From the NCBI GenBank assembly GCA_013178155.1, contig JABLXH010000015.1:4233-68232 (forward strand): a DNA stretch of 64,000 nucleotides, given 5' to 3'. Source of the DNA: Armatimonadota bacterium. Its GTDB lineage: Bacteria; Armatimonadota; Zipacnadia; Zipacnadales; UBA11051. The notes below the pieces were generated by a model that was not told the DNA's origin, ran no database searches, and saw only the letters and a list, made by a program, of their open reading frames with translations. Shown here piece by piece: positions 36,419-59,928 of the stretch (the stretch's first letter is position 1; every line of letters starts with the position of its first letter). The translations under genes were made by a program, and so were the position numbers.

Positions 36419-37393
36419 TCAAGGTCCAAGGGGTACATTGCTCAAGCTGCGTCCATGGTCCCGCCGCGGTCTCGCTGGCCGGGTGAGATACCTGTCTACC
36501 GTTGCCCATTTGGCGCAGCGCGCTAGCGCATACAGTGCCCGCCCGTAGCTCAAGTGGGTGGCTCGTCTCACCGGTCGGTCTCCCGGCGAGTTCTGCTCTC
36601 CGGCGCTGAGCTGCCGCTGGGGCACACGGCGTCCCAGCCAGCCGAGACAGTAGCGGCACGCCTCCAGTGGCTGGCGGGCAAACAGGTACTCGCGCACCCG
36701 CGCCAACAGATCCCCCGGAGCATGCAGGTCCACCCCATCGGCGGACGGGGTATAGCCGTCAAGCCCCAGTCGGTCCAGGTATCCCGGCAGGTTCACCGGC
36801 ATGCTGCACTTGTACAGCCACCCGTCACTGAACATGTGGCAGTGCTGCCGGTGCGCGACCCCGCAAGTGGAGTAGATGATCCGCGTCCAGAGGTCCATCG
36901 GATGGGGAGAGGTGACAGCGGCCGTGCGGAACTCGCGAACCTGCTCCACGATGAGGCGTACACGATGAGTGCGGGCCTGCGCCGCGGCGGCCTCCAGGAC
37001 CGCCTCGCTCGGCGGCGTCTGTGGGTAGAGACTGACCCGGACAACGTCTACATAGCGCCAGAGATCGTCAGTCACTGTGGGCAGCAGCAGACCGTTGGTG
37101 GTCACGGTGACCGTCCTGGCGATGCCCGATTCACGGGCCAGCCGCGCCATCGCGGGAAGCTCCGGGTTCAGCAACGGTTCGCCACCCAGCAGCACGAGGG
37201 TCCGCGCCCGGATCACCGTGGCAAGCTGCTGGAGATGGGCCGCAAAGCTTTTGGCGGAGGGCAACCGCCGGGGGACGTAGGGCGACAGATGGGAGCAGTG
37301 GGCACAGCGCAGATTGCAGTGGTGCGCGGCAGAAAACTGAATGGCTACGGTGTGTATCCGGCCATCTCTGAACTCGTAGAGCACTCCCCGCAT
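36419..37393 (-). CDS. Radical SAM protein with C-terminal Cys-rich (twitch/SPASM-like) region
   Basis: CNLRCAHC, LGGEPLL, TTNG, C..HC......LYKC, ACRYC. Confidence 0.88.
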   Translation of the reverse strand: MRGVLYEFRDGRIHTVAIQFSAAHHCNLRCAHCSHLSPYVPRRLPSAKSFAAHLQQLATVIRARTLVLLGGEPLLNPELPAMARLARESGIARTVTVTTNGLLLPTVTDDLWRYVDVVRVSLYPQTPPSEAVLEAAAAQARTHRVRLIVEQVREFRTAAVTSPHPMDLWTRIIYSTCGVAHRQHCHMFSDGWLYKCSMPVNLPGYLDRLGLDGYTPSADGVDLHAPGDLLARVREYLFARQPLEACRYCLGWLGRRVPQRQLSAGEQNSPGDRPVRRATHLSYGRALYALARCAKWATVDRYLTRPARPRRDHGRSLSNVPLGP

Positions 37394-38445
37394 GTCACCC
37401 CCTTGGCCCGCGACGAAGCTACGCCGCCCAAGCCTCCCCGGAGCCGCCAGGTCTGTCGGCGGAGCGACTGAACCGAACGCATGCAGGAGCGGACAACGTG
37501 CGGTGGCAGCAGAAGCGAGGCGCACGCGACATGGGCGGTGAGGGACCGTGGCTCTACGTCCAGAGCCGCGTCGAAGGCAGCCCCGGCTTCCTGTCGCTGC
37601 CCGGCGCCAAGGTAGAGAAGCCCCCGGGTACAGTGATATGCGACCACCTTGGAGCGAGCCCGACGTTGCAGCTGCGGATCACTGGACAGTCGCTCAAGGG
37701 CCGTCTGGAGGTCAAACTCGCCGCCGTTGCCATCGGCCTGGGCACGCTCCCAGGCCAGCGCCGAGTAGATCACCTGATCGTGGCGACGAGCGTAAGTGAG
37801 TTGCGCGCAGTGCACGCGATGATGCACCAGCGGTGTCTGAAGGTAGCCGAAGCGCGCTCGTGCGGCCGCGAGGCGCACAAACAGGTCGTAGTCACAGGAG
37901 ACCGGGAAGAACGGATCGTAGCCGCCAATGCCGCGCAGGGCCTCGGTGCGGATCATGGTAGAGGAGTGCACCAGCGGCAGTGACTGTCGCGCCAGGGTCT
38001 GCCGCAAGGGGGCCTTCGCCAGGCCACAGGCCCGTCCCCAGATGACCTCCCCCTGGTCATTGATGAGAGCCGCTCCGCTGCCGACCACGCTCAGGCCGGG
38101 GTCGGCGGCGAAGGCCCGCAGACTGAACTCCAGGCGAGTGGGCACCGACACGTCGTCGCAGTCGTGGATCGCCACAAAGTCTCCGCTTGCCGCGGCCAGG
38201 CCCCGGTTCAGCGCTCCGCCCGGCCCCATCCGGGTGGTGTTACGCAGCAGCCGTATTCGCTTGTCGCTTGCTGCCAGCCCTGCTACCACCGCCGCCGTGG
38301 CGTCTTCCGAGGCATCGTCTATGCAGATGAGTTCCCAGTGCTGGTAGGTCTGCGCCTGGACGCTACGGAGGGCGGCCTCCAGGAAGCGGACACCGTTGCG
38401 AGCGGGCATCAGCACCGACACGAGTGGGGTCCTCAGTTCGGGCAC
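37345..38445 (-). CDS. Glycosyltransferase family 2 protein (start uncertain)
   Basis: PLVSVLMPARN, IDDASED, ALNRG, HDCDD, GGYD, CDYDL; TPR-like C-terminal helices. Confidence 0.88.
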   Translation of the reverse strand: MPELRTPLVSVLMPARNGVRFLEAALRSVQAQTYQHWELICIDDASEDATAAVVAGLAASDKRIRLLRNTTRMGPGGALNRGLAAASGDFVAIHDCDDVSVPTRLEFSLRAFAADPGLSVVGSGAALINDQGEVIWGRACGLAKAPLRQTLARQSLPLVHSSTMIRTEALRGIGGYDPFFPVSCDYDLFVRLAAARARFGYLQTPLVHHRVHCAQLTYARRHDQVIYSALAWERAQADGNGGEFDLQTALERLSSDPQLQRRARSKVVAYHCTRGLLYLGAGQRQEAGAAFDAALDVEPRSLTAHVACASLLLPPHVVRSCMRSVQSLRRQTWRLRGGLGGVASSRAKGVTCGECSTSSEMAGYTP

Positions 38446-44760: not shown

Positions 44761-45923
44761 GCGTTCCTCGCCGGGCGCGTCGCGTGCCTCTGTCGGCGGT
44801 ACTGACCCACGTGGCCCTGGGCCTCGGCGGGGCGACGATGCTGCTGCCGCTGCTGTGGATGATCAGCACCTCTCTCAAGGAACCGGGAGAGGCCATGACC
44901 TTTCCGCCCGAGTTCCTGCCCCGCGCGCCCGTGACCTGGACCGACCCAAAGACAGGGCGAGAGCTACCGGTCTTCCGGTGCAACATTCAGGGCACGCCCT
45001 GTCAGGTGGCGCGTCTGGGCACCCGTGAGGGTCAAGCGGAGGTCATTGTGCTGGCGCCCCAGGTTATGGCCGGGCAGCGGGTGGGCGTGCCGTTGACCAT
45101 CACGGTGGACGGCCGTCCGCGCCGGGCGCTGGAGCCGGTCAAGCGCCTGGCCTTCCGCTGGCAGAACTTCCCCGATGCCTGGAACGCCCTGAAGCTGCAG
45201 CGTAACTGGATGGCCTGGGAGTGGCCCTATCGTCTGCAGCTCGGTCCCTTGCGCCTCGGCCCGTTCCGGTCTTCGGGGCTACCCCTTCGCAACGCCTTCC
45301 TGGCGTTCTACCTGAACTCTCTGATCGTCACCTGCGTGGTCACCGTCGGAGCGGTGTTCACCTCCAGCCTCGCGGCCTTTGCCTTCGCGCGGCTGCGCTT
45401 TCCGGGGCGTGACAAGCTGTTCGTCGGTTACCTGGGCACCATGATGGTCCCGGCTGTGGTCACCATGATCCCGGTCTTCGTTCTGACCAAGCTGCTGGGC
45501 ATCCACGACACCTACCTGGCACTCATCCTGCCGCCGATGTTCACGGCTTATGGTACGTTCCTGCTGCGCCAGTTCTTCCTGAGCATCCCCGGCGAGCTAG
45601 AGGACGCAGCCCGCATGGACGGTTGCGGCCTCTGGGGCATCTACCGCCACGTCATCCTGCCGCTCTCCCGTCCGGCCCTGGCGACCCTGACCACCTTCGA
45701 GTTCCTGTCCACCTGGAACAGCTTCATGTGGCCGCTCATCGTCATTGACAGCATGGAGAAGAAGCCGCTGATGGTCGGCCTGTATGCCTTCATGGGCCAG
45801 TACAACACCGAATGGACACTGCTGATGGCGGCCTCGCTGATGGTCATGGCCCCGGTGGTCATCGTCTTCATCCTGGGCCAGCGGTACTTCGTCAAGGGGA
45901 TCGTGCTGAGCGGCATGAAGTAG
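44757..45923 (+). CDS. Carbohydrate ABC transporter permease (MalG-like) with large extracytoplasmic insertion
   Basis: PLLWMISTSLK, NSLIV, AAFAFARL.FPGR, FLLRQFF.SIP.ELEDAARMDG, WNSFMWPL. Confidence 0.92.
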   Translation: MSVPRRARRVPLSAVLTHVALGLGGATMLLPLLWMISTSLKEPGEAMTFPPEFLPRAPVTWTDPKTGRELPVFRCNIQGTPCQVARLGTREGQAEVIVLAPQVMAGQRVGVPLTITVDGRPRRALEPVKRLAFRWQNFPDAWNALKLQRNWMAWEWPYRLQLGPLRLGPFRSSGLPLRNAFLAFYLNSLIVTCVVTVGAVFTSSLAAFAFARLRFPGRDKLFVGYLGTMMVPAVVTMIPVFVLTKLLGIHDTYLALILPPMFTAYGTFLLRQFFLSIPGELEDAARMDGCGLWGIYRHVILPLSRPALATLTTFEFLSTWNSFMWPLIVIDSMEKKPLMVGLYAFMGQYNTEWTLLMAASLMVMAPVVIVFILGQRYFVKGIVLSGMK

Positions 45924-45945
45924 CGATACCTACAGGAGAAGAGAT

Positions 45946-46512
45946 ATGCCCAAGGACCTTCTGCTCTTCGATACGCCGGGCCCAACCAACACGGCGCAGA
46001 CCCTGGCGGCGGCCGTAGCTCGCGCCGAGGAACTGGGGCTTCGTTATCTGGTCGTGGCCTCCACGACCGGCGACACGGCCGAGGCCCTCCGCCGCGAAGT
46101 TGGCGAACGCGACATGCAGGTCGTCTGCGTCAGCTACCATGCCGAGTTCAGGGGCGGTGATGAGGTGATGCCCAGGGAACGCCGGGTTGAGCTCCGGGAA
46201 CAGGGGATCGAGGTCGTCATCGGCTCACACGCGCTAAGCGGCGTCGAGCGCGCCATCTACAACAAGTTTGGCACCATCGGGCCCGTGGAGCTGATGGCCC
46301 ACTGCCTGCGCTGCTTCGGGCAGGGCATCAAGGTCGCCGTTGAGGTGGCGGTGATGGCGGCCGACAGCGCCGCTGCCCCCACCTCAGAGGACATTGTCGC
46401 CATCGGCGGCTCGGGGAAGGGCGCGGACGCCGCGGTGGTCATCCGGGCCGCGCACCAGAACAACTTCTTCGACCTGCGGGTCCGCGAGATCATCGCCATG
46501 GTGCGCGGCTAA
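45946..46512 (+). CDS. Pyruvate kinase C-terminal-like alpha/beta domain protein (MTH1675-like)
   Basis: PGP.NT..TL, VVASTTG.TA, HALSGVER, FGQGIKVAVEVAVMAAD, AIGG.G.GAD. Confidence 0.82.
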   Translation: MPKDLLLFDTPGPTNTAQTLAAAVARAEELGLRYLVVASTTGDTAEALRREVGERDMQVVCVSYHAEFRGGDEVMPRERRVELREQGIEVVIGSHALSGVERAIYNKFGTIGPVELMAHCLRCFGQGIKVAVEVAVMAADSAAAPTSEDIVAIGGSGKGADAAVVIRAAHQNNFFDLRVREIIAMVRG

Positions 46513-47630
46513 CGGCCGATGGGGTATGTCCCCACCTTCCGCAGTTCGTCTATCGCCGCCAGGTAGTTCTCTGCCTTGGCGCTGACGGTCACCGAGTGCG
46601 AAGTCCCCAGAATGAGGCCACCGCCCGGGGCGCAGCCGTAGATCGTCTCCCGCACTTGCTGGCGGATCTCCTCCGGGGTTCCTACTACCATCGTATGGGT
46701 CGAGAACCCGCCCCACAAGGCCAGCCGATGGCCCCAGGTGCGGCGCAGGCCCACGATGTCCTCCTCGGGCTGGATGGCCTGGTAGCAGTCAATGCCCGCC
46801 TCAATCATCTGATCAATGAGCAAGCGGTTGTCACCACAGGCATGCCATAACACGGGCACGCCGTGGCGGTGCACTCGCTCGCACAGAATCCTGATCGAAG
46901 GCATGTGGACTTCGCGGAAGGTCTTCGGCGACATGAAGGGGCCGTGGTTGTGGCCAAAATCCTCACCGATGGCGACGTTGTCGCAGCCCCGCTCAAAGTA
47001 CATGCTGAAGTCGGTAGCCTCTGCGCCGCGCAAGCGCTCCTCGCGCACCTTGTCTGGCTCCTCAGCCAGTCGCAGCATCATCGGCTCCCAGTCCAGCGCT
47101 GAGGGGTAGCCACAGGCCAGCCGCCGGCCGGGACGCGCCACGACGTAGTGGGTCGCCCCTAGCTCCTGCAGCGCGTAGTCAATGATCTCCCATTCGGACT
47201 CGTCCACCTCCGCCGGCGGCTCCCACAGGTCCGGGGCCGGCTGGGGGTCCAGGCCCCCGAGCTGGAAGAGCATCAGGTCATGGGTCAGGGCGCTGTAGCG
47301 ATACAGGTTGCCGCGCCAGTCGCGCCAGGTCTCGTGGTCCAGTTGCTGCAGCTTCTCGGGCTGGAAGCCCTTCGGGTAGGCCAGGTTGACGGCCAGGCCG
47401 TCCTGGTTGAACTCGCGGGCGAAGTCCACGATGTCGCGCTTCTGGCTGGCCACGACCTCGTCGCGCCCGCCGTCCCATAGCGCCTGCAGCTCCTTGAGCT
47501 TGGCCCGCCAGAAGGTCGGCCGACCCAGCAGGTCCTCGATCATGGTGTAGTCTATGGCGAACTCCATCATCGGAACGATGTCGGGTTCCTCGTGCCGCAG
47601 GGCCGCTGCCACTCGATCCTTGGATGTCAT
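46509..47630 (-). CDS. Uroporphyrinogen decarboxylase / MtaA-CmuA family protein
   Basis: MTSKDRV.AAL.HEEPD.VP, EDFG....PFMSP..F, WHACG, LWGG, GGGLIL..SHS. Confidence 0.85.
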   Translation of the reverse strand: MTSKDRVAAALRHEEPDIVPMMEFAIDYTMIEDLLGRPTFWRAKLKELQALWDGGRDEVVASQKRDIVDFAREFNQDGLAVNLAYPKGFQPEKLQQLDHETWRDWRGNLYRYSALTHDLMLFQLGGLDPQPAPDLWEPPAEVDESEWEIIDYALQELGATHYVVARPGRRLACGYPSALDWEPMMLRLAEEPDKVREERLRGAEATDFSMYFERGCDNVAIGEDFGHNHGPFMSPKTFREVHMPSIRILCERVHRHGVPVLWHACGDNRLLIDQMIEAGIDCYQAIQPEEDIVGLRRTWGHRLALWGGFSTHTMVVGTPEEIRQQVRETIYGCAPGGGLILGTSHSVTVSAKAENYLAAIDELRKVGTYPIGR

Positions 47631-47638
47631 GGTGCAGG

Positions 47639-49117
47639 TCACCTCAGCCGGGTTGTGACGATACGGTCATCGCCATGGTGGTCGAGGACGCAGGTCTGCA
47701 CCCAGAGCTCCTCGCCGGGGATCTCAGTCATCTGCAAGGTCACGTCAGCACTGCTCAGTCCACGCACCGGCGCGATGGCATGACCCAGTTGGCGGGTCAA
47801 GAGCGTCACCGGCCGGTCGAAGGTCGCTCGCGGAGCGGCGGCGCGTTCCGGGTTGCCGTTGTAGACCACCACCAGTGCGCGCTCGATGTCGAAGACGCCG
47901 CGGTTCCGCAGCCGGACCCGAAGCGCCGGCTGGGGACTCCGAGTCCCTGCCTGGCGTTCCGCCAGGAGGTGGCATCCTGCCACCTCGACGCGCAGGCTCT
48001 GGGCGAGTTCGGTGGGGCGCAGCTTCACGGCTGCTGCCGCGTCCAGTATGCCCCAGCCCAGCTTGCTGTCCCACTCCTGGCTCAGGCCCGTAGGGAAAGA
48101 CTTCGGTCGGTCTGTGCGTTCCGCGCTGGACCGGCTGGAACCAGTCGCTCGCGTACCATCGCGCCCTCCGGCGCGGCCGGAAGCCATGCCTGCCGGACCA
48201 TGCCGTGCAGCGGTGTTCCGGAGCACCTGCCGTAGCTGGTCGTTGGTCAGCTTCGGGAAACGCGACCACACCAGCGCCGCGACACCGCCGGCGAAGCCTG
48301 CAGCCATGCAACCGCCCTCCGAGGCCACGTACTTGCCGTTGCCGCCGGTGGACCACACGCGGTCCAGTTCGTCGCCAGTGCCCCTGTCACCAGCCGGAGC
48401 CGCCACCTCAACGTAGTCGGCATCGGGGGCGATATCGGCAGGGCCCCCGTGGCGGCTGCTGGAGCCCACCGCCACCACGCAGTCCAGGGCTGTGGTGGCG
48501 AAAGCCGCGCGCCGGCCACGGTTGTCTATGACCCCGCAGCAGATGAGGCAGCCCGCGTCATAGGCCGCCTCCAGCGCCTGCCGCAAGCGAGGGTTGTCCA
48601 CCGGGGCGCCGAAGTCCGTCCCACGGTAGAAGAGCGGCACCGGCGAAGCGGTCCGTCCATGGCTGATGAAGCCATGCGGCATGACCAGCACCTGTGCCCC
48701 GTGCTCGACTGCGTACTCGATGCCTCGCGCCCAGTTGTCCTTGGGCGCACGGTAGCCCACCCGCACCGCCATGACGCGGCACTCCGGCGCACAGGCGATG
48801 ACTTCGCCGACGATGAAGGAGTGGTGGTCGCGGTAGTAGGGGGTGTCTGCTCCCGGCCCCGCAGGCTCCAGGGTGGCATCGTCGTCCGCGCAGTCCCAGC
48901 CGTGCAAGTCGCCCCGGCGCGGCCGCGGGTTCACCCACAGGTGCCCGGCATGGTGTGGGTGCGGGTTGTAGCCCAGGTCAATGACCGCGACGACCACATC
49001 GGGGTTGCCCCGGATGACCCTATGGGCCTGCGGCACCCGCAGCTGCCGCAGGGGCCAGCCATAGGGCGTGCGGTGGAGAGTATCCAGGTGCAGGCTGGGG
49101 CTCAACTTGCCGCCCAT
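47639..49117 (-). CDS. Subtilisin-fold (S8) protein with Cys at the nucleophile position
   Basis: VVVAVIDLG, HGWD, DHHSFIVG, VVAVGS, VAAPAG, EGGCMAAGFAGGVAALVWS, LRQVLRNTA, GWGILDA.AAV. Confidence 0.78.
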   Translation of the reverse strand: MGGKLSPSLHLDTLHRTPYGWPLRQLRVPQAHRVIRGNPDVVVAVIDLGYNPHPHHAGHLWVNPRPRRGDLHGWDCADDDATLEPAGPGADTPYYRDHHSFIVGEVIACAPECRVMAVRVGYRAPKDNWARGIEYAVEHGAQVLVMPHGFISHGRTASPVPLFYRGTDFGAPVDNPRLRQALEAAYDAGCLICCGVIDNRGRRAAFATTALDCVVAVGSSSRHGGPADIAPDADYVEVAAPAGDRGTGDELDRVWSTGGNGKYVASEGGCMAAGFAGGVAALVWSRFPKLTNDQLRQVLRNTAARHGPAGMASGRAGGRDGTRATGSSRSSAERTDRPKSFPTGLSQEWDSKLGWGILDAAAAVKLRPTELAQSLRVEVAGCHLLAERQAGTRSPQPALRVRLRNRGVFDIERALVVVYNGNPERAAAPRATFDRPVTLLTRQLGHAIAPVRGLSSADVTLQMTEIPGEELWVQTCVLDHHGDDRIVTTRLR

Positions 49118-50142
49118 CAGCCGTACACCCCAAACTCGGCGATGGCGTCCGCCATCGCGCGGACGTTCTCGTCCTTCATGTCGGCGGTCAGGCTGTTGGA
49201 GGAGGAGATGATGTAGCCACCTCCTGCGCCGATGTGCTCGATGCGGTCGCGGACCTGCTCCCGGATGTCATGGGGCTGCTTGTGCACGAGATCATCCATG
49301 AAGATGTTGCCCACCAGGCAAAGGCGGTCGCCATACCGGGCCTTGACCGCGTTGATGTCCATTACGTCGGGCTGGAGGGGATGAATGGCGGCCTGTCCCA
49401 GTTGCAGCCAGTCCTCCAGGATGGGCGTCATGTCTCCGTCGCTGTGGGTGATCAGCGGCAGCTCCAGCGCCGCCGCGGCGCGTTGCTGTACCGGCAGCAC
49501 GACCTCCCGGTAGAAGGCTGGCGAGAACATGGGGCCGTTGTTGAAGGCCACGTCATCGAAAGCCCAGAAGACATCGAAGCCGATCTCGGCCAGCCGCGGC
49601 CCCAGGCGGATGGTCCAGTCGGCGTAACGTTCCATGATTTCGACAATCAGCTCCGGGTCATCCGCCATGGCGTAGGAGAAAGCTTCCAGGCCCATGCTCA
49701 TCAGTGTGGCGCCGATGCCCAGGCGGATGCAGGCAATGGCGCAGAAGTCCTCCTTGTGGGCGATGAACTCCCGCGCGCTGTCCAGGAAGCCCGGGGCGTC
49801 CATATCCGGAAACTGCATCTTCGCCAGGTCGTCGCGGGTGTGGATAAGCCCCTCACCGACGACCACGACGCCCTGCAGGCTGGTGCGACCCGCGTAGACG
49901 GGCGCGAAGGCATTGTAGTTGATGTTGTCCTTGCCGAGCGCCCGGCAGACCTTCTTCTGCTGCTCGGCCAGGAACGCGCCCGAGGCCACGGGCGTGCCGT
50001 CCGGAGCGATGTCCCAGTTCACCTCAATCTTCTCTCCGCACAGCCGGGTCGCCAGCTCGTCGCTGACGATGCCCTCAATCCAGGGCACGCGGTCCGGGAT
50101 CTCACGCCGCAAGGCAGCCAACACGCGCTCTCGTGAGGTCAT
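49117..50142 (-). CDS. Uroporphyrinogen decarboxylase / MtaA-CmuA family protein
   Basis: MTSRERV.AAL.REIPDRVP, DDVA....PMFSP..Y, HSDG, HPLQP, LVGNI, GGGYIISSSNS. Confidence 0.87.
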   Translation of the reverse strand: MTSRERVLAALRREIPDRVPWIEGIVSDELATRLCGEKIEVNWDIAPDGTPVASGAFLAEQQKKVCRALGKDNINYNAFAPVYAGRTSLQGVVVVGEGLIHTRDDLAKMQFPDMDAPGFLDSAREFIAHKEDFCAIACIRLGIGATLMSMGLEAFSYAMADDPELIVEIMERYADWTIRLGPRLAEIGFDVFWAFDDVAFNNGPMFSPAFYREVVLPVQQRAAAALELPLITHSDGDMTPILEDWLQLGQAAIHPLQPDVMDINAVKARYGDRLCLVGNIFMDDLVHKQPHDIREQVRDRIEHIGAGGGYIISSSNSLTADMKDENVRAMADAIAEFGVYG

Positions 50143-50179
50143 CGGTGGCTTCTCTCCGTTCGTGTAACGTCGGGCGCCG

Positions 50180-51136
50180 CTAGCGGCACTCCACGCGCTG
50201 ACCCGTAGCTGCCGCCTCCGTGGCCCACAAGGCCAGCCGATTGGCTCGCAGCGACGCTTCCTGCGGGATCAGGTCGCCCCCGGCCAGCCAGTCGGCGACC
50301 ACGGACGTCGCCGGTGGCAGCGTCTCGAGTACCTGGCCCTCACCGCTCGGGTCCGTGACGGTGACGCGGCTGGCGGTCATATCGAGGTCGGCAAAGCCCC
50401 GCGTACCGGCCACAGTGACGCGGTAGTCCGATCCCCGGGTGTCTGGCAACATGCGCTGGCCCTCGCAGACCGCAGCGGCACCCTCCAGCTCACAGAAGAC
50501 ACTGGCATGATCGCGCAGGTGCCGCTCGTCGGGGTAGCCCAGGTTGCCGGTGACGGCCGATACGGCGACCGTCTTCTGACCCGTAAGCCATTCGACGTAG
50601 TCCAGGCCGTGGATCAGCAGGTCCAGGAAGAGCCCGCCAGAACGCCGCACATCGAGAAACCAGGGGGGTCGCGCGGCGCGCTTGAGCTGAACAGCCATGC
50701 GCACATGGACGAACGCCGGCGTACCGAGACGCCCTGACTGCACCACGCCTCGCAACCCGGCCCAGAGGGGATGGCCACGGAGGGTCAGGAGATTCAGTAG
50801 CTTGCGACCGGAAGCGGCGACTGCCTCCTCCACGGCTCGCTGCTGGTCCCAGGTGACGGCCAGGGGCTTGTCGCAGACGACGTCACAGCCGGCGTGCAGG
50901 GCGGCCACGATCGTCTCGGCTCGCAGGTCGTTTTCATTGGCGACGGCCACCAGGTCGGGCTGGAAACGTTGTAAGAGTTCCTGGTAGCCCACCACCACCG
51001 GGCAGCCGAACTGCTCGGCGGCTTGAGCGGCCTGGTCGGCACGCACCGCGGCGCCCACGATCTCCAGTTGTTGCCCGCGGAGGGCGGTGATCTCGCTGAT
51101 GTGGGTCTCGCCGCCGACGATCCCGACCCGTCGCAT
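50180..51136 (-). CDS. Gfo/Idh/MocA family oxidoreductase
   Basis: VGIVGG..H, CDKPLA, SGGLFLDLLIHGLD; GGAGG RBS before MRRVG. Confidence 0.85.
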   Translation of the reverse strand: MRRVGIVGGETHISEITALRGQQLEIVGAAVRADQAAQAAEQFGCPVVVGYQELLQRFQPDLVAVANENDLRAETIVAALHAGCDVVCDKPLAVTWDQQRAVEEAVAASGRKLLNLLTLRGHPLWAGLRGVVQSGRLGTPAFVHVRMAVQLKRAARPPWFLDVRRSGGLFLDLLIHGLDYVEWLTGQKTVAVSAVTGNLGYPDERHLRDHASVFCELEGAAAVCEGQRMLPDTRGSDYRVTVAGTRGFADLDMTASRVTVTDPSGEGQVLETLPPATSVVADWLAGGDLIPQEASLRANRLALWATEAAATGQRVECR

Positions 51137-51278
51137 GGGCTTCCTCCGGTGCTGGTCTGAGACCGGAATATAGACCGGGGCGACGTTGTTCTCCTTCCCG
51201 AGATAACCCGCCACGCAGGTCGACCGGGGCTGCAGACGGAAGCACGCGGCCAACCATTGCCGGGAGGTGGCCGGGGCC

Positions 51279-52361
51279 ATGCGACCCGCAACCAGGCTGC
51301 GACAGGCCATGTCACGGGCGATCCGCGAGGGGCAGACGCCGGGCGTAGTGGTGCTGGTGGGAAAGGGTGACGACGTGCTCTTCCATGAGGCGGTCGGCGA
51401 GCGGATGGCCGTTCCCGACCACCGACCGATGGAGCTGGACACCGTCTTCGACCTGGCCTCACTGACCAAGCCGGTCGCCACGGCCACGGTCGTGATGCAG
51501 CTTATCGAACGAGGGGTGCTGGGACTGCGAGACCCGGTGCGACAATGGCTGCCCGAGTACACGGGCTCCGGACGCGACCACACCACGCTTTGGCACCTGC
51601 TGACCCACTGCTCGGGCCTCCCCGCCTACAAGCAGTACGCCGACGCCCTGGGGCCCCGCGTGCCCAGGGCCCGGCGGCGGCCGGAGGTCGTCGCCGACAT
51701 TTGCCGGCTGCCGCTGCAGCACGCCCCGGGCAAAGGGTTCATCTACTCGTGCCTGGGCTACATCCTGCTGGCCTCGGTCGTGGAGCGGGCCACCGGGCAG
51801 CCGCTGGACCGCTGCTTCCGCGACCAGGTGGCGCGGCCGCTGGGGTTGTATGACACGATGTTCTGCCCGTCGCCGGCGCGAGTGGCTCGCTGCGCCGCCA
51901 CCGAGCAGCTCCCCTCGGGGGTGCTCCTGGGCGTGGTCCATGATGAGAACGCCCGGTACCTGAACGGGGTCGGCGGCAACGCCGGGCTTTTCAGTACGGC
52001 CCCGGACCTGTCGCGGTTCATGCGGATGCTGCTGGGCGGCGGGATGCTGGGGGGCGTGCGCATCCTGGAGCGCAGGACCGTGAAGGCGATGCTGTCGCCC
52101 CAACTCAGGCTCCCGGGTTGCGTGCGCGGACTGGGATGGGACGTAGACTCCGACTACTCGCCCTCCCTGCGTGGCGACCGCTTTCCGAAGGGCGCCAGCA
52201 TCGGCCACAGTGGCTACACGGGCACCTCGATCTGGGCTGACCCGGCGCAGCGCCTGTATGTCATCATCCTGACCAACCGGGTGCACTACGGGCGGGACAA
52301 GGATGTGCAGAAACTGCGGCGACAGGTGGCGGATGCGGCGTGGGAGTTGGCGCTAGACTGA
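51279..52361 (+). CDS. Serine hydrolase, beta-lactamase/AmiE-like family
   Basis: FDLASLTK (SxxK), LLTH.SG, YSCLGY, GVVHDENA, GNAGLFS, GHSGYTGT, LTNRVH. Confidence 0.9.
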   Translation: MRPATRLRQAMSRAIREGQTPGVVVLVGKGDDVLFHEAVGERMAVPDHRPMELDTVFDLASLTKPVATATVVMQLIERGVLGLRDPVRQWLPEYTGSGRDHTTLWHLLTHCSGLPAYKQYADALGPRVPRARRRPEVVADICRLPLQHAPGKGFIYSCLGYILLASVVERATGQPLDRCFRDQVARPLGLYDTMFCPSPARVARCAATEQLPSGVLLGVVHDENARYLNGVGGNAGLFSTAPDLSRFMRMLLGGGMLGGVRILERRTVKAMLSPQLRLPGCVRGLGWDVDSDYSPSLRGDRFPKGASIGHSGYTGTSIWADPAQRLYVIILTNRVHYGRDKDVQKLRRQVADAAWELALD

Positions 52362-52363
52362 CC

Positions 52364-53641
52364 TCACCCTTGGCCGATGCAGAACAGGTGCTTCTCACCC
52401 CGCACGAACATGCGGCCTGCGGCGAAGGCCGGGGTGGAGTAGACCGCCTCGCCCAGGCGCCCCGACCCCAACTGCCGGAACTCGCGAGCCGCGGCCACCA
52501 CGAAGGCGTCGCCGGTCTCGCTGAACAGGACAAGCTTGTCCCCGGCCAGGGCTGGGGATGACCGGAACCTCCCCTCCAGGTTCTCTGTCCAGAGCAGTTC
52601 GCCCTGTGCGGCATCGTAACAGCTCAACAGACCGTCCGAGGCGAGGGTGAAGACAAGCTTGCCGTCGCTGAGCGGGCTGCAGATGTCCGGCAGCTGCCCT
52701 CTCACCGACCAGGCCACGTGGCTGTCGGTGACGTCTCCCTGACCGTCGGGCCGAATGGCAGTTAGCTCCGCGTAGATGTTGGCGACGATGACCAGGCCAT
52801 TGGCGAAGATGGGCGAGGGCGCGGAGTCCCCCTCGATGCAGTTCACCCGCCAGTACTCCTCGCCGCTGACCGGGTTGTAGGCGATGACCCAGGGCTTGGC
52901 GCTGGTGATGAGTTCCTCGCGCTGGCCGGTGTTGATGACAATCGGGGTGGTCCATGAGCCCTGCACCGGGCGGGGGATGTCCCAGACGGTCTGCCCGGTG
53001 AGCCGATCGAGGGCCACCAGATGGGACTTGCCGATGTCGGGCTTGCCCAGGTCGATCTGGACATAGAGCAGATCGCCATGCACCACGGGCGAGGATGCAT
53101 GTCCGTAGATGTCCTCGTGCATGGGAAAGTGGCGCTGCCAGACCAGGGCGCCGGAGAAGTCCAGTGCGACCACATGGCCGGTGGGGAAGACGGCGTAGAA
53201 ACGCTCACCGTCGGTGGCTCCCGTGGGCGCCGCGTAGCCGGTCATCTCGTGAAGGCGCAGGGGCGGGTCGGTCGCCTCGCCGGGCGCGACAGCGGTTGTC
53301 CACAGGCGGCGACCGCTGCCGGTGTCGAGGCAGTAGACTTCCCGGGCGTTCGCGTCAGCCCCGGTCGCAAAGAGATGATCGCCCCAGATGACCGGGGAGT
53401 TGGCGCCCGGCAGCGGCAGCGCGGCCTGCCAAAGGATACCTTCGCCCGACGCTGCGTCCCAGTCTGGCGGGAGGCTGACGTCCGGAGCGATGCCGGAGCC
53501 GTCGGCGCCGCGGAACCGTGGCCAGTAGTCTGCCGGGGGCTGCGCGGGAGCCAGAACCACGAAAGCTAGCAGTCCGAGCACGAAGCTGCAGGCCGCAGCG
53601 AAGCCGCGGCCCGACCAGTGGCACCGAGTGGTTCTTGCCAT
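52364..53641 (-). CDS. PQQ-binding-like beta-propeller repeat protein, secreted
   Basis: Signal peptide, WPRFRG..G.G, SPVIWGD, repeated LD..TG...W and SP blades. Confidence 0.88.
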   Translation of the reverse strand: MARTTRCHWSGRGFAAACSFVLGLLAFVVLAPAQPPADYWPRFRGADGSGIAPDVSLPPDWDAASGEGILWQAALPLPGANSPVIWGDHLFATGADANAREVYCLDTGSGRRLWTTAVAPGEATDPPLRLHEMTGYAAPTGATDGERFYAVFPTGHVVALDFSGALVWQRHFPMHEDIYGHASSPVVHGDLLYVQIDLGKPDIGKSHLVALDRLTGQTVWDIPRPVQGSWTTPIVINTGQREELITSAKPWVIAYNPVSGEEYWRVNCIEGDSAPSPIFANGLVIVANIYAELTAIRPDGQGDVTDSHVAWSVRGQLPDICSPLSDGKLVFTLASDGLLSCYDAAQGELLWTENLEGRFRSSPALAGDKLVLFSETGDAFVVAAAREFRQLGSGRLGEAVYSTPAFAAGRMFVRGEKHLFCIGQG

Positions 53642-53695: not shown

Positions 53696-55663
53696 TTAGG
53701 GCCAGGGGAAAAACGGCGCGGGGACGCGCCAGATGCTGGCAATGGCGGCCCAGATGACGGCCAGCAGGAACTCCCCGAGAATCAGACCCAGGAAGAAGGG
53801 CCGCAGGTTCAGATAGACCTTCATGCCTCCGTAGCGGAGGATGACCGACTTGACGATCCAGGCAACGAGGATCGGCCACCAGAAGACGATCATGCTCCAG
53901 GAGCCCGAGAGCGCGAAACCCAGGGGCGAGAACGGCCACCAGACGTGCTGGGTGCGCATGTAGGCCAGGAAGGTCGCAAACCCGATGCCGGCCAGGAAGA
54001 AGATGGGTAGCCGGAAGTCGTACTTGTCAGGCGTCTCCATGACCGGCTGGAAGTAGGTGAAGCCGGCGAAGGCATTCCACTTGTAGGAGTAACCGTAGAG
54101 TGTCACCGCGCCCTTGTGGTAGGGCAGGACGAGCTGGATGATGCCTCCCGCTATCAGCGCGACGCCGAAGGCAGCCGCCACCGACCAGAAGAGCTGACGC
54201 CGGTCCAGCTTCGTCAGGTCAGCCATCTTCAGGCCGTCAAGGAACGTGGACAGCAGATTGCCGCGCAGATCGCGGGTGAAGACAGCATCTACCATGGCCA
54301 GCGCCGTCAGGGTGCTGCCACCGAGGGCGCGCTGGGTGGTGAACACGCGGATCAGGTCCACGGGCCGGAAGCTGGTCTCGGTCATCAGCATCCCGGCTTC
54401 CGAGACACTGCGGGCCATGACCAGCACGACGAGGAACAGAAAGACCCCGATCTCCACTGCGGCCATCCACAGGCTCATGCCCAGCAGATGGCACCAGTAC
54501 ACCGCGGTGATGACGGAGATGATCAGCCCGAAGACTGCGGTGCGCGGCGAAAGGAACTCCGAGCGCCCCTCGGCGGGCTGGTTGCTCACGGCGCGCCGCC
54601 AGAAGTCTCGCAGGTGCGGCAGGGCTGACTTCACCAGGTACGCGCTCAGAACCACGTAGGCTCCGGTGACGTGGTAGCCATTCCAGAGGCTGGTGGGGTA
54701 CAGCGACATGGGCTGCAGGCTCTGACCAAACAGGGAGAAGACGATGTTTTCGGCCCGGCAGAGCAGGAACATGGACCACAGCGAGACCAGAACCTGAGAG
54801 GGAAGGAAGTAGCTGAAGCCGACGGCCGCCAAGGAGCAGTAGGCCACCGTGTAGTCCAGGTCAGTCCACGGCTTGGCGTGCATGTACTGGTTCAGCGGAT
54901 ACTGCAGCGGGATCATGGGAATGGCGGGATACAGGCCGTGCAGACCGTTGAGCGTGAAGACGAAGGCCGGGATGGAAAAGCCCAGCCAGGTGAGACGGTT
55001 GCGGAGGAAGGAGTCCGGCACCGACTGGTCGCGCGAAAGCTCGACCGGGAGCTGCACCAGCGGAAAACTGAGTTTCTCGTTATCCACCCACTGCCGGCGC
55101 AGGATGGCCGCCAGGCAGGCGTAGGCAAAGGTAAGGGCCAGGATGACCACGAGCCAGGCGGCGATAGGGCCCAGCCAGGGCCTCCAGGGGATGCTGCCAT
55201 ACGGCGGCAGGCCCTCGTAGAAGTCCACGACCAGCTTCTGACGACCCACCCCCTTGACGTCGAAGGGGACCGCCCACTGCGGAATATGCTGGTAGTAAGT
55301 CTTCTCCCAGTGATTGGCCTCAGTGGTGTGATAGTTGACCGCGACGAGGGTGGGGAGCCAGCGCTCCATCAGCCCCCGGGAGGTGGTCAGCGCGGCCACC
55401 AGGACCATCATGTAGATGACGATGATCTCATGGGCCGCCAGGCCAAGCCGACTTGGGACGGCCCGCACGGCCATGTTCAGCAAGACCAACAGGAAGAACA
55501 GCCCGATGGCGGCAGGCGCGAACTGGCAGATGGCGATCTGGATGGAGGTGACCACCAGTTCGGCCCAACTGACAACAAAACACACCGCCGCCGCGCCGAT
55601 GAGCCCGATCACGATGGCGACCGGGCGAACGCGGTAGAGGGTCAGCGTGGTGCTCTCCGCCAT
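53696..55663 (-). CDS. DUF6785/DUF6784-like polytopic membrane protein (putative transporter)
   Basis: IPWRPWLGP, RRQWVDNEKLSFPLVQLP, WWPFSPLGF, LRYGG...Y...RPFFLGLILGE; many TM helices. Confidence 0.75.
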   Translation of the reverse strand: MAESTTLTLYRVRPVAIVIGLIGAAAVCFVVSWAELVVTSIQIAICQFAPAAIGLFFLLVLLNMAVRAVPSRLGLAAHEIIVIYMMVLVAALTTSRGLMERWLPTLVAVNYHTTEANHWEKTYYQHIPQWAVPFDVKGVGRQKLVVDFYEGLPPYGSIPWRPWLGPIAAWLVVILALTFAYACLAAILRRQWVDNEKLSFPLVQLPVELSRDQSVPDSFLRNRLTWLGFSIPAFVFTLNGLHGLYPAIPMIPLQYPLNQYMHAKPWTDLDYTVAYCSLAAVGFSYFLPSQVLVSLWSMFLLCRAENIVFSLFGQSLQPMSLYPTSLWNGYHVTGAYVVLSAYLVKSALPHLRDFWRRAVSNQPAEGRSEFLSPRTAVFGLIISVITAVYWCHLLGMSLWMAAVEIGVFLFLVVLVMARSVSEAGMLMTETSFRPVDLIRVFTTQRALGGSTLTALAMVDAVFTRDLRGNLLSTFLDGLKMADLTKLDRRQLFWSVAAAFGVALIAGGIIQLVLPYHKGAVTLYGYSYKWNAFAGFTYFQPVMETPDKYDFRLPIFFLAGIGFATFLAYMRTQHVWWPFSPLGFALSGSWSMIVFWWPILVAWIVKSVILRYGGMKVYLNLRPFFLGLILGEFLLAVIWAAIASIWRVPAPFFPWP

Positions 55664-57209: not shown

Positions 57210-58493
57210 TCAACCCTCTGACCGGGCGGACCGGAACTTGAAGAAGTAGACCCTGGGCGGGTTACTCCACTGGTCGGTGCAACTGCCGATGACATGGCCG
57301 TCGGGGGTAACCTCGGGGCAGCCGCCGATGGCGTAGAGGCTGCCGAAGGTGTGTCGCGACTGGGCATAGTCGTGCCAGGTGGCGCCGTTGTCGTAGCTGA
57401 TGATGGCGGTGACGCGGTTCGAGGTCGAGGAGGAGTTGCCGATGCAGTACAACGGGCTTCCCGGGTCGCGGTCATCCGAGGCGAAGAAGCCGTCCAGGCG
57501 GCACATCGGCAGGGCCTCGCCCCCGAAGCGGGGGGCGATGTCCAGGTCCGGTCGGGCGGTCCGCAGGTCGTAACGCACATAGCGCTGCGTAGCCTCGGGC
57601 CGTCCCTGGATCTGATAGGTGAAGTGCAGCTTCCCGGCCTTGGCCAGCAGGCTCCATAGCCAGGAGTGGACCTCGAACTCCTCCGGGCGGCTGATGAGGT
57701 CCGTCGGGCCGCTATCGTCGGCGGCGAAGGGCGGCGTGAGCGGGGTGCCGTCGAGCCTGAGCCAGGTCCGCCCGCCATCCACGGACTTCATGCAGTGGAT
57801 ATCCCAGTACAGGTAGACGTCCTTCTTCTGGGTCGTCCAGGCGGCGTACAGCGTGCCATCGGTATCCAGGTCCAGGTAGGTGTACTGCAGCCAGGCGTGC
57901 TCCCCTGGTTGCATGAGCCGCGCCTGATGCCGGACCTTGCCATCGAGGCCGATGACGAAGAACCACTCGTTGGCGCTGAAGAAGTAGAGCTGTCCCCGGC
58001 GCTCGTCTATCTCCAGGGCGTACTTGCCGTGCACGCTGCCCGGGACCTCGGTGATGATCGGGTCGCGGTAGTCGCGTTCCGCCAGGAAGCGGTAGAGATA
58101 CGACATGTTATTGCTCCACTGGGCATCGCCCCAGTCCGGCCGCATCAGGTAGACGTTGTCCCGGGAGTCCGTCTCCAGCACCGCCGGGTTGGTGGCATTG
58201 GTGGCCTCGTGCAGGACGGTCCAGTTGCGCCCACCATCCTGGCTCCAGATCAGCCGCCACTGCTGGGCGGTATACGCCTCGTTGCGCGAACGGATGTAGG
58301 CCATGAAGTACCCGCGCCGGTTGCTGACCACCTTCTGGTTGTTGCTCTGGAAGGTGGCGTAGCCGGTGGCGTTCTCGTCCACGCACCGGGTCCAGATTGT
58401 CTTTAGCTTCGGGGCCTCTGCCATGGCGAAGCCACTCCCCGTCAGCGCAGTGAGTATCAGCAGGGCCAGTCCTCGGCGCAGCCAGTGGTTCAC
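57210..58493 (-). CDS. BNR/Asp-box beta-propeller protein (secreted)
   Basis: Signal peptide; SQDGGRNW, SVDGGRTW, SYDNGATW Asp-boxes. Confidence 0.75.
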   Translation of the reverse strand: MNHWLRRGLALLILTALTGSGFAMAEAPKLKTIWTRCVDENATGYATFQSNNQKVVSNRRGYFMAYIRSRNEAYTAQQWRLIWSQDGGRNWTVLHEATNATNPAVLETDSRDNVYLMRPDWGDAQWSNNMSYLYRFLAERDYRDPIITEVPGSVHGKYALEIDERRGQLYFFSANEWFFVIGLDGKVRHQARLMQPGEHAWLQYTYLDLDTDGTLYAAWTTQKKDVYLYWDIHCMKSVDGGRTWLRLDGTPLTPPFAADDSGPTDLISRPEEFEVHSWLWSLLAKAGKLHFTYQIQGRPEATQRYVRYDLRTARPDLDIAPRFGGEALPMCRLDGFFASDDRDPGSPLYCIGNSSSTSNRVTAIISYDNGATWHDYAQSRHTFGSLYAIGGCPEVTPDGHVIGSCTDQWSNPPRVYFFKFRSARSEG

Positions 58494-58507
58494 AGGTCAC
58501 TCTCCTG

Positions 58508-59716
58508 TCAGCCGTCACGGCGGCGCGCGCCGGGGATGCGAATGAAATGGACGTGGGCCGGGTCCACACCCCGGTCGGTGAGGGACCCGATGACATCGCC
58601 TTCGGGTGTCAGTTCGCGGCAGCCGCCAATGGCATAGGGCTCGACGATGGGAGAGCGGCTCACCGCATGGTCGTGCCAGGTCGCGCCGTTGTCGTGGCTG
58701 ACCAGACAGACCAGTTGGGAGCCATTGGCCCCCACGTAGTACAGCGGGCTTTCAGGCTGCTCCGCAGCGGCGGCGAAGAAGCCGTCGAACCAGGTAGCCT
58801 CCAGCTTTTCGCCCCCAAAGCGTGGCGTCAGGTCCATGTCCCGCGCCCCGGTCGCGAGGTCGTACCGCATGTAGTGGAACCGCGGCGGGTCGGTGTTGGC
58901 CCGGTACGCGAAGTGCAGCTTGCCGCCCTTGGCCACGAAGCTGTGCAGCCAGGTGTGCACCTCCAACTCGTCGTCCAGACTGATGCGGTCGGCGGTGCTG
59001 GCGTCATCGGCGACGACGGGCAGCTCCAGCGGTGTGCCATCCAGCTTATGCCAGTGGACACCGCCGTCCGGCGACTTGGCTACATGAATGTCCCAGTACA
59101 GGTAGCGGTCGTGATAGGAGGTCGTCCAGGCCGCATAGAGCGTGCCAGCGGCGTCAAGGCAGAGGTGTGGGTACTGCGTGATGGCATTCGCTCCCGCCGT
59201 CGTAAGGCGACAGGTGCGCAGGAGATGGCCCTCGAGGTCAAGCGTGAAGAGGCTGTCCTTGTTGTGGGAGAAGTAGTGCAACTCCCGCCGTCCGGCGTCA
59301 AAGAGCGCGCAGAACTTGCCAGCCATGCTGTGCGGGGTGACGGAGATGACCGGCGGGGCCTCGAGGTCGCCGGCAGCGAAACGGTAGAGATACGAGTGGT
59401 CGTCCACAAAGTCCGGCCGAATCAGATAGACAGTGCCAGCCTCGTCTGCCTCCAGCACCGGCGGGTTGGTGGCATTGGTCTCCTCGTGCAGGACGCGCCA
59501 CGTCTCGCCGCCATCGGCGCTGTGCATGAGCCGCCACTGCTGGGCCGTGTACTCCTCGTTGCGGCTGCGCAGATAGGTCATGAACAGCCCGCCGGGGGTG
59601 TGGATGACCTTCTGGTTGTGGCTCTGGAAGGTCCCGTAGTAGGTGGCCTTCGCATCCACGCAACGCATCGCAATGGCCTGAATCCCGTCGCCAGGCGTCC
59701 GGGGCGGGGTCGGCAT
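58508..59716 (-). CDS. BNR/Asp-box beta-propeller protein (no signal peptide), paralog of 57210..58493
   Basis: SADGGETW, SPDGGVHW, SHDNGATW; GGAGGAGG RBS before MPTPP. Confidence 0.75.
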   Translation of the reverse strand: MPTPPRTPGDGIQAIAMRCVDAKATYYGTFQSHNQKVIHTPGGLFMTYLRSRNEEYTAQQWRLMHSADGGETWRVLHEETNATNPPVLEADEAGTVYLIRPDFVDDHSYLYRFAAGDLEAPPVISVTPHSMAGKFCALFDAGRRELHYFSHNKDSLFTLDLEGHLLRTCRLTTAGANAITQYPHLCLDAAGTLYAAWTTSYHDRYLYWDIHVAKSPDGGVHWHKLDGTPLELPVVADDASTADRISLDDELEVHTWLHSFVAKGGKLHFAYRANTDPPRFHYMRYDLATGARDMDLTPRFGGEKLEATWFDGFFAAAAEQPESPLYYVGANGSQLVCLVSHDNGATWHDHAVSRSPIVEPYAIGGCRELTPEGDVIGSLTDRGVDPAHVHFIRIPGARRRDG

Positions 59717-59928
59717 CGGGCGCCTCCTCCGGTGAATGGGCACGCCGGCGAAGACTTCGCGTCGCTCAGCCCTGGCACCTCTCGGCGACCCGCACCTCCC
59801 ATTGGCGCGCGGTATTCATCCTTCGCCACAGGCCCAGAGGTGCCCGAGGGCACAGGAGACCTCAGCTCAGGCGACGAACCACCTGCAGCGCTGGCCGCAA
59901 CGCACACGCGGCGCCGGAGGTGAACCTG

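Follow-up and report, generated by a model that had tools for sequence, protein, structure and literature searches.

A conserved subtilisin-fold family with cysteine at the nucleophile position, encoded on an Armatimonadota contig and in other phyla

The window analysed here is a 64,000-nucleotide stretch from an Armatimonadota bacterium (assembly GCA_013178155.1, contig JABLXH010000015.1, positions 4,233 to 68,232 of the forward strand). On its (-) strand it carries a gene for a 492-amino-acid subtilisin-fold protein (P0001, here the S8 protein; 47639..49117, stop codon included), in which a cysteine takes the place of the catalytic serine. The frame is open across 492 codons, and the assignment draws on the open reading frame (ORF), Pfam, AlphaFold2 and Foldseek. 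The Pfam profile PF00082 (Peptidase_S8) matched the protein at 53.8 bits, above the gathering score of 21.8 for membership, and also matched 41/41 members of a family alignment (A1) chosen across the identity range of 120 homologues. NCBIfam gave sub-threshold matches only, the best being to the mycosin model TIGR03921 (97 bits against a cutoff of 278.75).

The best PDB sequence match obtained with phmmer was the subtilisin BPN' variant 1gns, with SEGGCMAAGFAGG of the S8 protein aligned to KSGTCMASPHVAG of 1gns. Asp47, found within VIDLG (codon GAC, 48977..48979, (-)), corresponds to the catalytic Asp32 of BPN'. The segment RDHHSFIVGE aligned with NSHGTHVAGT, placing His98 (codon CAC, 48824..48826, (-)) at the catalytic His64, and IDNRGRR aligned with AGNEGTS (DNRGRR over GNEGTS), placing Asn199 at the oxyanion Asn155. 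Cys270 (codon TGC, 48308..48310, (-)) lies in the context S-E-G-G-C-M-A-A-G-F-A-G-G, where GGCMAA aligned with G-T-(S/C)-M-A-S of BPN' chains, and so occupies the Ser221 position. The S8 protein has the order Asp, His, nucleophile and the oxyanion Asn of S8 enzymes, and its nucleophile motif reads G-G-C-M-A-A-G instead of G-T-S-M-A-x-P with the serine. A sequence-only reading of this DNA had described an S8 fold with Cys for the catalytic Ser, a GGCMAAG nucleophile motif with TGC at 48308-48310, retained Asp (VIDLG) and His motifs and an altered oxyanion segment. All these elements are present in the ORF; the fold agrees with the Pfam score, the BPN' alignment and the structural matches to subtilisins given below, and within the altered oxyanion segment the Asn itself is kept. 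Selenocysteine or recoding at Cys270 was set aside, as TGC is an ordinary Cys codon.

Searching 5.8 billion proteins by a word index yielded 135 relatives, and the analysis used the best 120 (42-79% identity by BLASTP). The GGCM motif was found in all of these best 120 of 135, as GGCMA in 110 and GGCMS in 10, and Asp47, His98 and Cys270 were present in 120/120. Invariant positions in the 120-protein alignment were A44, D47, Y50, L60, G73, D80, L83, H98, G104, P111, M116 and A136, followed by H148, G166, D168, N199, G201, R202, P241, G243, G268, G269, C270, M271 and L282. Conservation continues after the oxyanion Asn, with N199, G201 and R202 in 120 proteins each, R203 in 118 and R200 in 115.

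The genome contigs were also scanned, taking one genome per species; 248 stretches were confirmed and 80 loci were kept. Forty-eight of them (L002-L049), with 36-67% identity to the S8 protein, are family loci from bins labelled Armatimonadota, Planctomycetota, Chloroflexota, Verrucomicrobiota, Kiritimatiellota, Lentisphaerota, Gemmatimonadota, Spirochaetales, Clostridia and Bathyarchaeota. GGCM was read in 46/48 family loci, the remaining two ending before the motif, and the loci at 25-29% identity (L050-L081) all have the canonical G-T-S. Both Cys codons are in use over the 46 loci (TGC in 37, TGT in 9). Contigs from three other metagenome runs, 90-99% alike, span the Cys codon and show third-codon-position changes at 48299, 48302, 48311 and 48320. 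Within the order of the host the gene is patchy, being present in 5/41 genomes searched, its own included.

Cys270 is not a sequencing or assembly error, and its recurrence is far beyond chance. The sequence-only reading had argued that the differences around the motif spoke against a single base error, and had called for GGCM to be followed among homologues; the 120/120 proteins, the 46/48 loci and the use of both codons bear it out. Its further call for support at 48308-48310 was answered in part, as no change falls on these three positions among the differences listed for the three-run contigs, with 64 more differences beyond that list.

The cysteine is accompanied by other changes in the nucleophile helix. 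In the profile alignment, the position of Thr220 (-1) is Gly in 38/40 Cys rows and Thr in 104/107 Ser rows, while the position of Pro225 (+4) is Pro in 99/107 Ser rows. The S8 protein has Gly274 at the latter position (codon GGC, 48296..48298, (-)), and among the 120 core-family proteins it is Gly in 107, Ser in 7, Ala in 5, Glu in 1 and Pro in none. Over all 40 Cys rows the counts are Gly 22, Pro 10 and Ala 8, the other Cys subfamilies keeping Pro or having Ala.

These positions are the ones modified in engineered thiol-subtilisins. According to PMC7921005, the S221C exchange drastically lowers the activity of subtilisin, and the P225A exchange relieves the crowding caused by the larger thiol and restores activity, S221C/P225A being subtiligase. 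The same paper reports that the helix becomes shorter, and Cys221 moves by about 0.5 A, when residue 225 is small (Gly or Ala). It describes engineered thiol-subtilisin as a poor amide hydrolase, with a thioester intermediate that favours aminolysis, so that S221C with a small residue at 225 yields a ligase; the background on engineered Ser-to-Cys subtilisin given in the sequence-only reading agrees with it. The S8 protein has this pair in Cys270 (position 221) and Gly274 (the small residue, position 225). Judged by its residues, the core family naturally bears the same kind of paired change as the engineers' S221C with a small 225. This pair of Cys and non-Pro 225 is the strongest sign that Cys270 would be a working nucleophile.

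The substrate cleft differs as well. His148 (48674..48676, (-)), present in 120/120 proteins, lies in M-P-H-G-F/Y (M-P-H-G-F in the S8 protein), where subtilisin has the S-L-G-G substrate-binding strand (125-128 of BPN'). The segment Asn199-Arg-Gly-Arg-Arg (48509..48523, (-)) comprises the oxyanion Asn and an Arg-rich loop at Glu156-Ser159 of BPN', so that Arg200, Arg202 and Arg203 fall on the segment Glu156-Gly-Thr-Ser, which in BPN' lies at the S1 pocket rim, and in the alignment the loop that follows is four residues shorter than in BPN'. The presence of His148 and of the three arginines in the cleft suggests that the substrate may be anionic and not an ordinary peptide.

The AlphaFold2 model built on alignment A1 had a mean predicted local distance difference test (pLDDT) of 87.8 and a predicted template modelling (pTM) score of 0.89, with pLDDT <50 solely at residues 1-3 and 308-346. 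Foldseek comparison of the model with the PDB returned subtilisins at template modelling scores over the target (TMt) of 0.80-0.84 and E 1e-17, consistent with a subtilisin alpha/beta fold; the matches included 1c9j (E 1e-17, TMt 0.81) and the peptiligase 7am3 (TMt 0.83), as well as two-domain matches to furin at scores over the query (TMq) of ~0.5. Residues 308-346 (48080..48196, (-)) form a private low-complexity insert, predicted to be disordered and absent from the other 40 A1 members. This insert of ~40 residues is rich in Gly, Arg, Ser and Thr, and the contigs of runs X3 and X5 have 150 other letters in place of 47939-48210, a shorter stretch at the insert. Residues ~373-492 (47642..48001, (-)) form a C-terminal all-beta domain, a predicted beta-sandwich recognised from the strands in the model and from conservation, in which Gln443, His446, Gly453 and Asp479 are near-invariant in the 120-protein alignment. 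No Pfam family was found for this domain in any of the 41 members scanned; CARDB occurs in 15-86% of the members of related Atlas clusters, which is a lead only for its identity.

Cysteine is not confined to the core family. The A1 profile was compared with 1.84 billion cluster representatives, giving 61 proteins at E <= 1e-30, and other S8 groups scoring below the core family likewise read G-G-C at the nucleophile. One such protein (P0134) keeps the Asp, His and Asn. Another four (P0135, P0141, P0142 and P0144) are Cys-bearing S8 proteins of 572-1210 amino acids with signal-like N-termini and Pro225 kept, one of them with Laminin_G domains, and they look like exported thiol-subtilases. A further five (P0146, P0153, P0160, P0161 and P0185) have Glu at the catalytic Asp position (VIE.G) with a G-G-C or G-H-C nucleophile, lack signal peptides and begin directly at the N-terminus of the mature domain; they could be regarded as a sister subfamily with a putative Glu-His-Cys triad. 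The core family consists of stand-alone proteins of 440-500 amino acids. Fused, longer forms were not found at E <= 1e-30, which is weak evidence, and neither Pfam nor NCBIfam has a model specific to any of these other Cys-bearing groups or to the core family.

A catalytic-domain tree was inferred with IQ-TREE (LG+G4) after removing the columns at and around the nucleophile, using 78 of 138 rows with at least 75% fill, namely all non-Ser rows plus the 45 Ser rows that came first in the file. All 30 Cys rows (30/30) fell in one group of 33, with an ultrafast bootstrap of 99 and a Shimodaira-Hasegawa-like approximate likelihood ratio test value of 94, in a tree that is unrooted, whose bootstrap correlation of 0.934 is not fully settled and whose rows were picked by their score to the Cys-family profile. 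The other three rows of the group were a truncated sequence, the Ser row P0131 (G-Q-S) and one degenerate relative, P0140 (LLEDG, no His, GCGLAA). Support for the core family was 100/100, the tree requires at least 2 Ser/Cys changes, and the nearest Ser-type rows came from bins of Bipolaricaulota, Thermotogota and Heimdallarchaeota. On this sequence evidence the Cys S8 proteins form a widespread clade comprising several subfamilies. The natural Asp-His-Cys subfamily proposed by the sequence-only reading stands, extended by this wider clade that the cysteine marks.

The S8 protein has 20 residues ahead of the conserved Trp21 of the mature domain, with no hydrophobic stretch, and this N-terminus is too short for an I9-type prodomain. 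The median length before Trp21 in the 120 relatives is 19 residues, and a signal-like hydrophobic N-terminus of 26-57 residues is found in 13/120 (P0065, P0087, P0088, P0091, P0092, P0094-P0100 and P0111). The majority of the core family is probably cytoplasmic, with a branch probably exported. The absence of a signal peptide and propeptide noted earlier holds for the S8 protein; the absence of a signal peptide does not hold for the family as a whole, and the label of a cytoplasmic subfamily was too general.

In the window, the S8 gene is the third of four tightly packed (-) genes. A Gfo/Idh/MocA oxidoreductase gene, identified with Pfam (50180..51136, (-), start at MRRVG), lies 37 bases upstream of a URO-D-like gene of 341 amino acids (49117..50142, (-); PF01208, E 5.6e-25), whose stop overlaps the S8 start by one base. 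Downstream is a second URO-D-like gene (46509..47642, (-); PF01208, E 2.9e-21) with a GTG at 47642 that overlaps the S8 stop (GTGA), although its likely start is an ATG at 47630, 8 bases past the S8 stop. The spacing suggests that the S8 gene is co-transcribed with the oxidoreductase and the two URO-D-like genes. A promoter and terminator scan of 45800-52500 gave nothing beyond shuffled expectation, and the G+C content showed no island.

The two URO-D/MtaA-like paralogues flanking the S8 gene are diverged. The downstream protein has a W-H-A-C-G stretch, which we take to resemble the His-x-Cys zinc motif of MtaA-type methyltransferases, and the upstream one has T-H-S-D-G at the same place. The upstream type is 55-81% identical between phyla, better conserved than the S8 protein itself, and a PDB sequence search with the URO-D-like neighbour returned weak UroD and MtaA matches only. 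Long ORFs of 203-255 amino acids overlap the S8 gene in other frames (47624-48235, (+); 48449-49216, (+); 47745-48356, (-)); they were rejected as genes, as they are expected by-products of 67-70% G+C, and the high G+C content likewise accounts for the long antisense ORFs across the S8 gene.

Around the operon, Pfam identified two ABC permeases, an MGH1-like glycoside hydrolase, a serine beta-lactamase-fold protein, a PQQ-like beta-propeller, a DUF6785/DUF6784 membrane protein and two BNR-repeat proteins. A few kb separate the gene for the DUF6785/DUF6784 protein from the S8 gene, in the window (53696-55663, (-)) as well as at L002 (10456-12381, (-)), the closest locus of the genome-contig scan, and the protein may be the transporter of the module. 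The two BNR/Asp-box repeat proteins adjoin each other at 57210-59743 (-), 8-10 kb from the S8 gene, and have weak sialidase-like matches. An unrelated AIPR-family protein (abortive-infection type) is found by a radical SAM protein and a family-2 glycosyltransferase (34820-36010, (-); 36419-37525, (-)).

Part of this arrangement recurs in other genomes. A tblastn search with the window neighbours located Gfo/Idh/MocA orthologues (46-68% identity) beside the S8 gene at 12 family loci. The upstream URO-D-like gene has orthologues (55-81% identity) near it at L004, L011, L012, L013, L039, L040, L043 and L044. The loci concerned span several phyla. A Pfam scan of the neighbours covered 129 of 132 ORFs at 18 loci. 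The recurrent partner directly adjoining the S8 gene was a CE4-type Polysacc_deac_1 protein of ~340 amino acids; other recurrent partners were DegT/DnrJ/EryC1 aminotransferases, AraC regulators, DUF3604 metallohydrolase-like proteins and isochorismatase-like proteins, together with M24 peptidase-fold proteins in Chloroflexota loci. Thirty-seven family loci had flanks of at least 4 kb on each side; among these, CE4 was present in 23, M24 in 18 (Chloroflexota only), DUF3604 in 16, the oxidoreductase in 9, DegT in 9 and the upstream URO-D in 6. Outside the window, the CE4-type deacetylase is the most constant neighbour, often with a DegT aminotransferase.

The host genome has a CE4 orthologue on another contig, 71% identical to the CE4 gene of L002 and beside an isochorismatase-like gene, and a DegT orthologue (64% identity) on a third contig. 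The CE4 partner retains the Asp/His-His metal motifs; a PDB sequence search with it gave no match, and its structural model is predicted to consist of a CE4-like barrel and a beta-sandwich, with the putative deacetylase 4dwe as nearest structure. A complex prediction for the S8 protein and the CE4-like partner scored 0.00, which is no evidence either way. At the Clostridia locus L042 the S8-CE4 pair stands with DHDPS-family and YhcH-family genes, families that we take to include sialic-acid catabolic enzymes. Because a deacetylase, an aminotransferase, a sugar-type oxidoreductase, regulators and transporters co-occur, the module appears to serve the catabolism of a compound that is N-acylated and bears an amine, perhaps an amino sugar or a fragment of a glycopeptide. 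The neighbourhood fits a catabolic role yet names no substrate. The acyl hydrolase, transferase or ligase activity and the place in small-molecule metabolism that the sequence-only reading proposed for the protein are inferences.

We consider it probable, at roughly 60%, that the S8 protein is catalytically active as a thiol hydrolase working through an acyl-enzyme, as an amidase, peptidase or esterase, and that its module degrades an N-acylated or aminated substrate. Its active site would most likely be Asp47-His98-Cys270 with the oxyanion Asn199, working as in subtilisin. Cys270, activated by the His, would attack the carbonyl, an acyl-enzyme would form as a thioester, and water would release the acyl group, resulting in amidase, peptidase or esterase action. 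The nucleophile helix would have been rebuilt round the larger sulfur by the changes of Thr220 and Pro225 to Gly. In the host, the protein would stay in the cytoplasm and cleave an amide or ester at one step of the pathway that degrades an N-acylated, amine-bearing compound.

Several points weigh against this hydrolase. Amide hydrolysis is not the default expectation, because engineered thiol-subtilisin, as described in PMC7921005, hydrolyses amides poorly. The neighbourhood is non-uniform, since Chloroflexota loci have CE4, M24 and DUF3604 without the Gfo/Idh/MocA, URO-D or DegT genes, and several Planctomycetota loci have none of these; the counts over 37 loci (CE4 23/37) are not independent events, because many of the Chloroflexota loci are close kin. 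The locus set is skewed towards GGCM, because this motif served as one of three retrieval patterns in the scan of genome contigs, a bias from which the search that gave the 120 homologues was free. The core family is not bound to one compartment, because 13/120 members look exported. No RNA run was present among the sequencing runs listed with the S8 gene, which has no bearing on expression.

The most interesting rival is a natural subtiligase, in which an amine instead of water would resolve the thioester; the protein would then make or exchange amide bonds as a transpeptidase, as a ligase or cyclase, or as an acyl-transferase. Chemistry favours it, as the family has exactly the Cys and small 225 residue that yield a ligase in S221C subtilisin (PMC7921005), and peptiligase and omniligase chains are among the top structural and sequence matches. 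The catabolic context disfavours it: the neighbours (AraC regulators, ABC permeases, the deacetylase, the aminotransferase and glycoside hydrolases) point to regulated uptake and degradation, and the scan of 18 loci showed no biosynthetic genes such as those for precursor peptides or ATP-grasp enzymes. Moreover, natural papain-type Cys-His enzymes hydrolyse amides efficiently, so that a Cys alone does not imply a ligase, and we regard a ligase as unlikely. A broader version of the same idea is also doubtful, if somewhat less so. It holds that clan SB is a mixed-nucleophile clan in which an old, probably single Ser-to-Cys switch founded the thiol-subtilase clade (the Asp-His-Cys family, the Glu-His-Cys proteins and the secreted multidomain forms), the core family being nature's subtiligases. 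Their thioester would serve not for plain proteolysis but for transferring acyl groups, by transamidation, ligation or thioester chemistry, with an anionic substrate that is not a protein.

It is less probable still that the protein is a processing or regulatory protease cutting a specific partner protein, for instance a neighbouring enzyme, and not a metabolite. S8 enzymes are usually proteases, and the tight gene coupling and constant adjacency to the CE4-like gene would suit such a role, but the neighbours have no conserved extension or prodomain, and a cleft with P-H-G-F/Y for S-L-G-G and a shortened, Arg-rich S1 region is unlike a standard peptide cleft. A pseudo-enzyme, with the fold kept for binding or scaffolding and a Cys that is not a nucleophile, would be in keeping with the loss of Ser, the usual mark of S8 pseudoproteases, and with the weak Pfam S8 match (53.8 bits). 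Such a protein would hardly be expected to preserve the Asp, His, Asn, Cys and preceding Gly-Gly in 120/120 relatives; the compensating loss of Pro225 is sensible only if the Cys must reach a substrate, and real decay looks different, as in P0140, so that we consider this reading very improbable. Nothing except the odd motif speaks for an error of sequencing or assembly or for a gene in decay, and this reading is refuted because the homologues carry the same Cys; with this residue in every relative, two synonymous codons, third-position variation nearby and an intact frame, its chance is negligible. The thiol hydrolase remains the reading we favour.

Source annotations of the homologues are "S8 family serine peptidase" or "hypothetical protein", and the former name is wrong on chemistry for these proteins. 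A full-text literature search found neither a natural Cys-nucleophile S8 enzyme nor this gene module, most subscription journals lying outside the search, so that an earlier mention is possible. A 2007 survey reportedly described prokaryotic subtilases with variant catalytic residues. The family was previously unnamed, and its second-site change parallels the engineers' fix for thiol-subtilisin. A preprint that pairs "subtilisin-like" with "catalytic cysteine" in a defence context is unrelated and deals with caspase-like proteases (bioRxiv 2025.11.14.688446).

Among known systems, mycosin of type VII secretion (TIGR03921) is the best-scoring curated NCBIfam model; however, the S8 protein scores far below its cutoff, has a nucleophile other than Ser and lacks both a membrane anchor and an ESX context, and the mycosin identity was rejected at 97 against the equivalog cutoff of 278.75 bits. 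An intracellular subtilisin protease was also rejected. These proteases have a short inhibitory N-terminal extension, and the S8 protein, which shares the lack of a signal peptide, has a Cys nucleophile and no evident extension motif in its 20 N-terminal residues. With subtilisins of the BPN'/Savinase type (S8A; 1c9j, 1gns, 1st3) it shares the alpha/beta fold and the order and context of the Asp, the His, the oxyanion Asn and the nucleophile. It differs from them in the Cys nucleophile, in Gly for Thr220 and for Pro225, in P-H-G-F for S-L-G-G, in the Arg-rich loop after the oxyanion Asn and in the added C-terminal beta domain; it also lacks a signal peptide and an I9 propeptide, and identity is only ~20%.

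The engineered thiol-subtilisins, subtiligases, peptiligases and omniligases (S221C with P225A/N; 7am3-7am8, 5ox2) share with the S8 protein Cys221 and a residue at 225 that is small and not Pro. They are laboratory products of a secreted protease acting on ester substrates, whereas the S8 family is natural, occurs in many phyla and has its own cleft residues and the extra change of Thr220 to Gly, its activity being predicted from sequence. Subtilisin counts as a textbook serine protease, and its Ser-to-Cys exchange has for sixty years been the standard example of a crippling nucleophile swap and the starting point for peptide ligases. If the proposed chemistry is true, the family would supply natural scaffolds pre-tuned round a Cys nucleophile for ligase and acyl-transfer engineering, and it would draw attention to an uncharacterised step within the conserved catabolic module (CE4, DegT, Gfo/Idh/MocA and URO-D-like) of glycan-degrading and scavenging bacteria. 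As far as we know, listings of clan SB give only serine as the nucleophile. Clan PA, which has a different fold, joins the chymotrypsin-fold Ser proteases and the viral 3C-type Cys proteases, with Ser or Cys as nucleophile on one fold, and a natural, conserved and phylum-spanning Cys clade would make clan SB a mixed Ser/Cys clan of the same kind.

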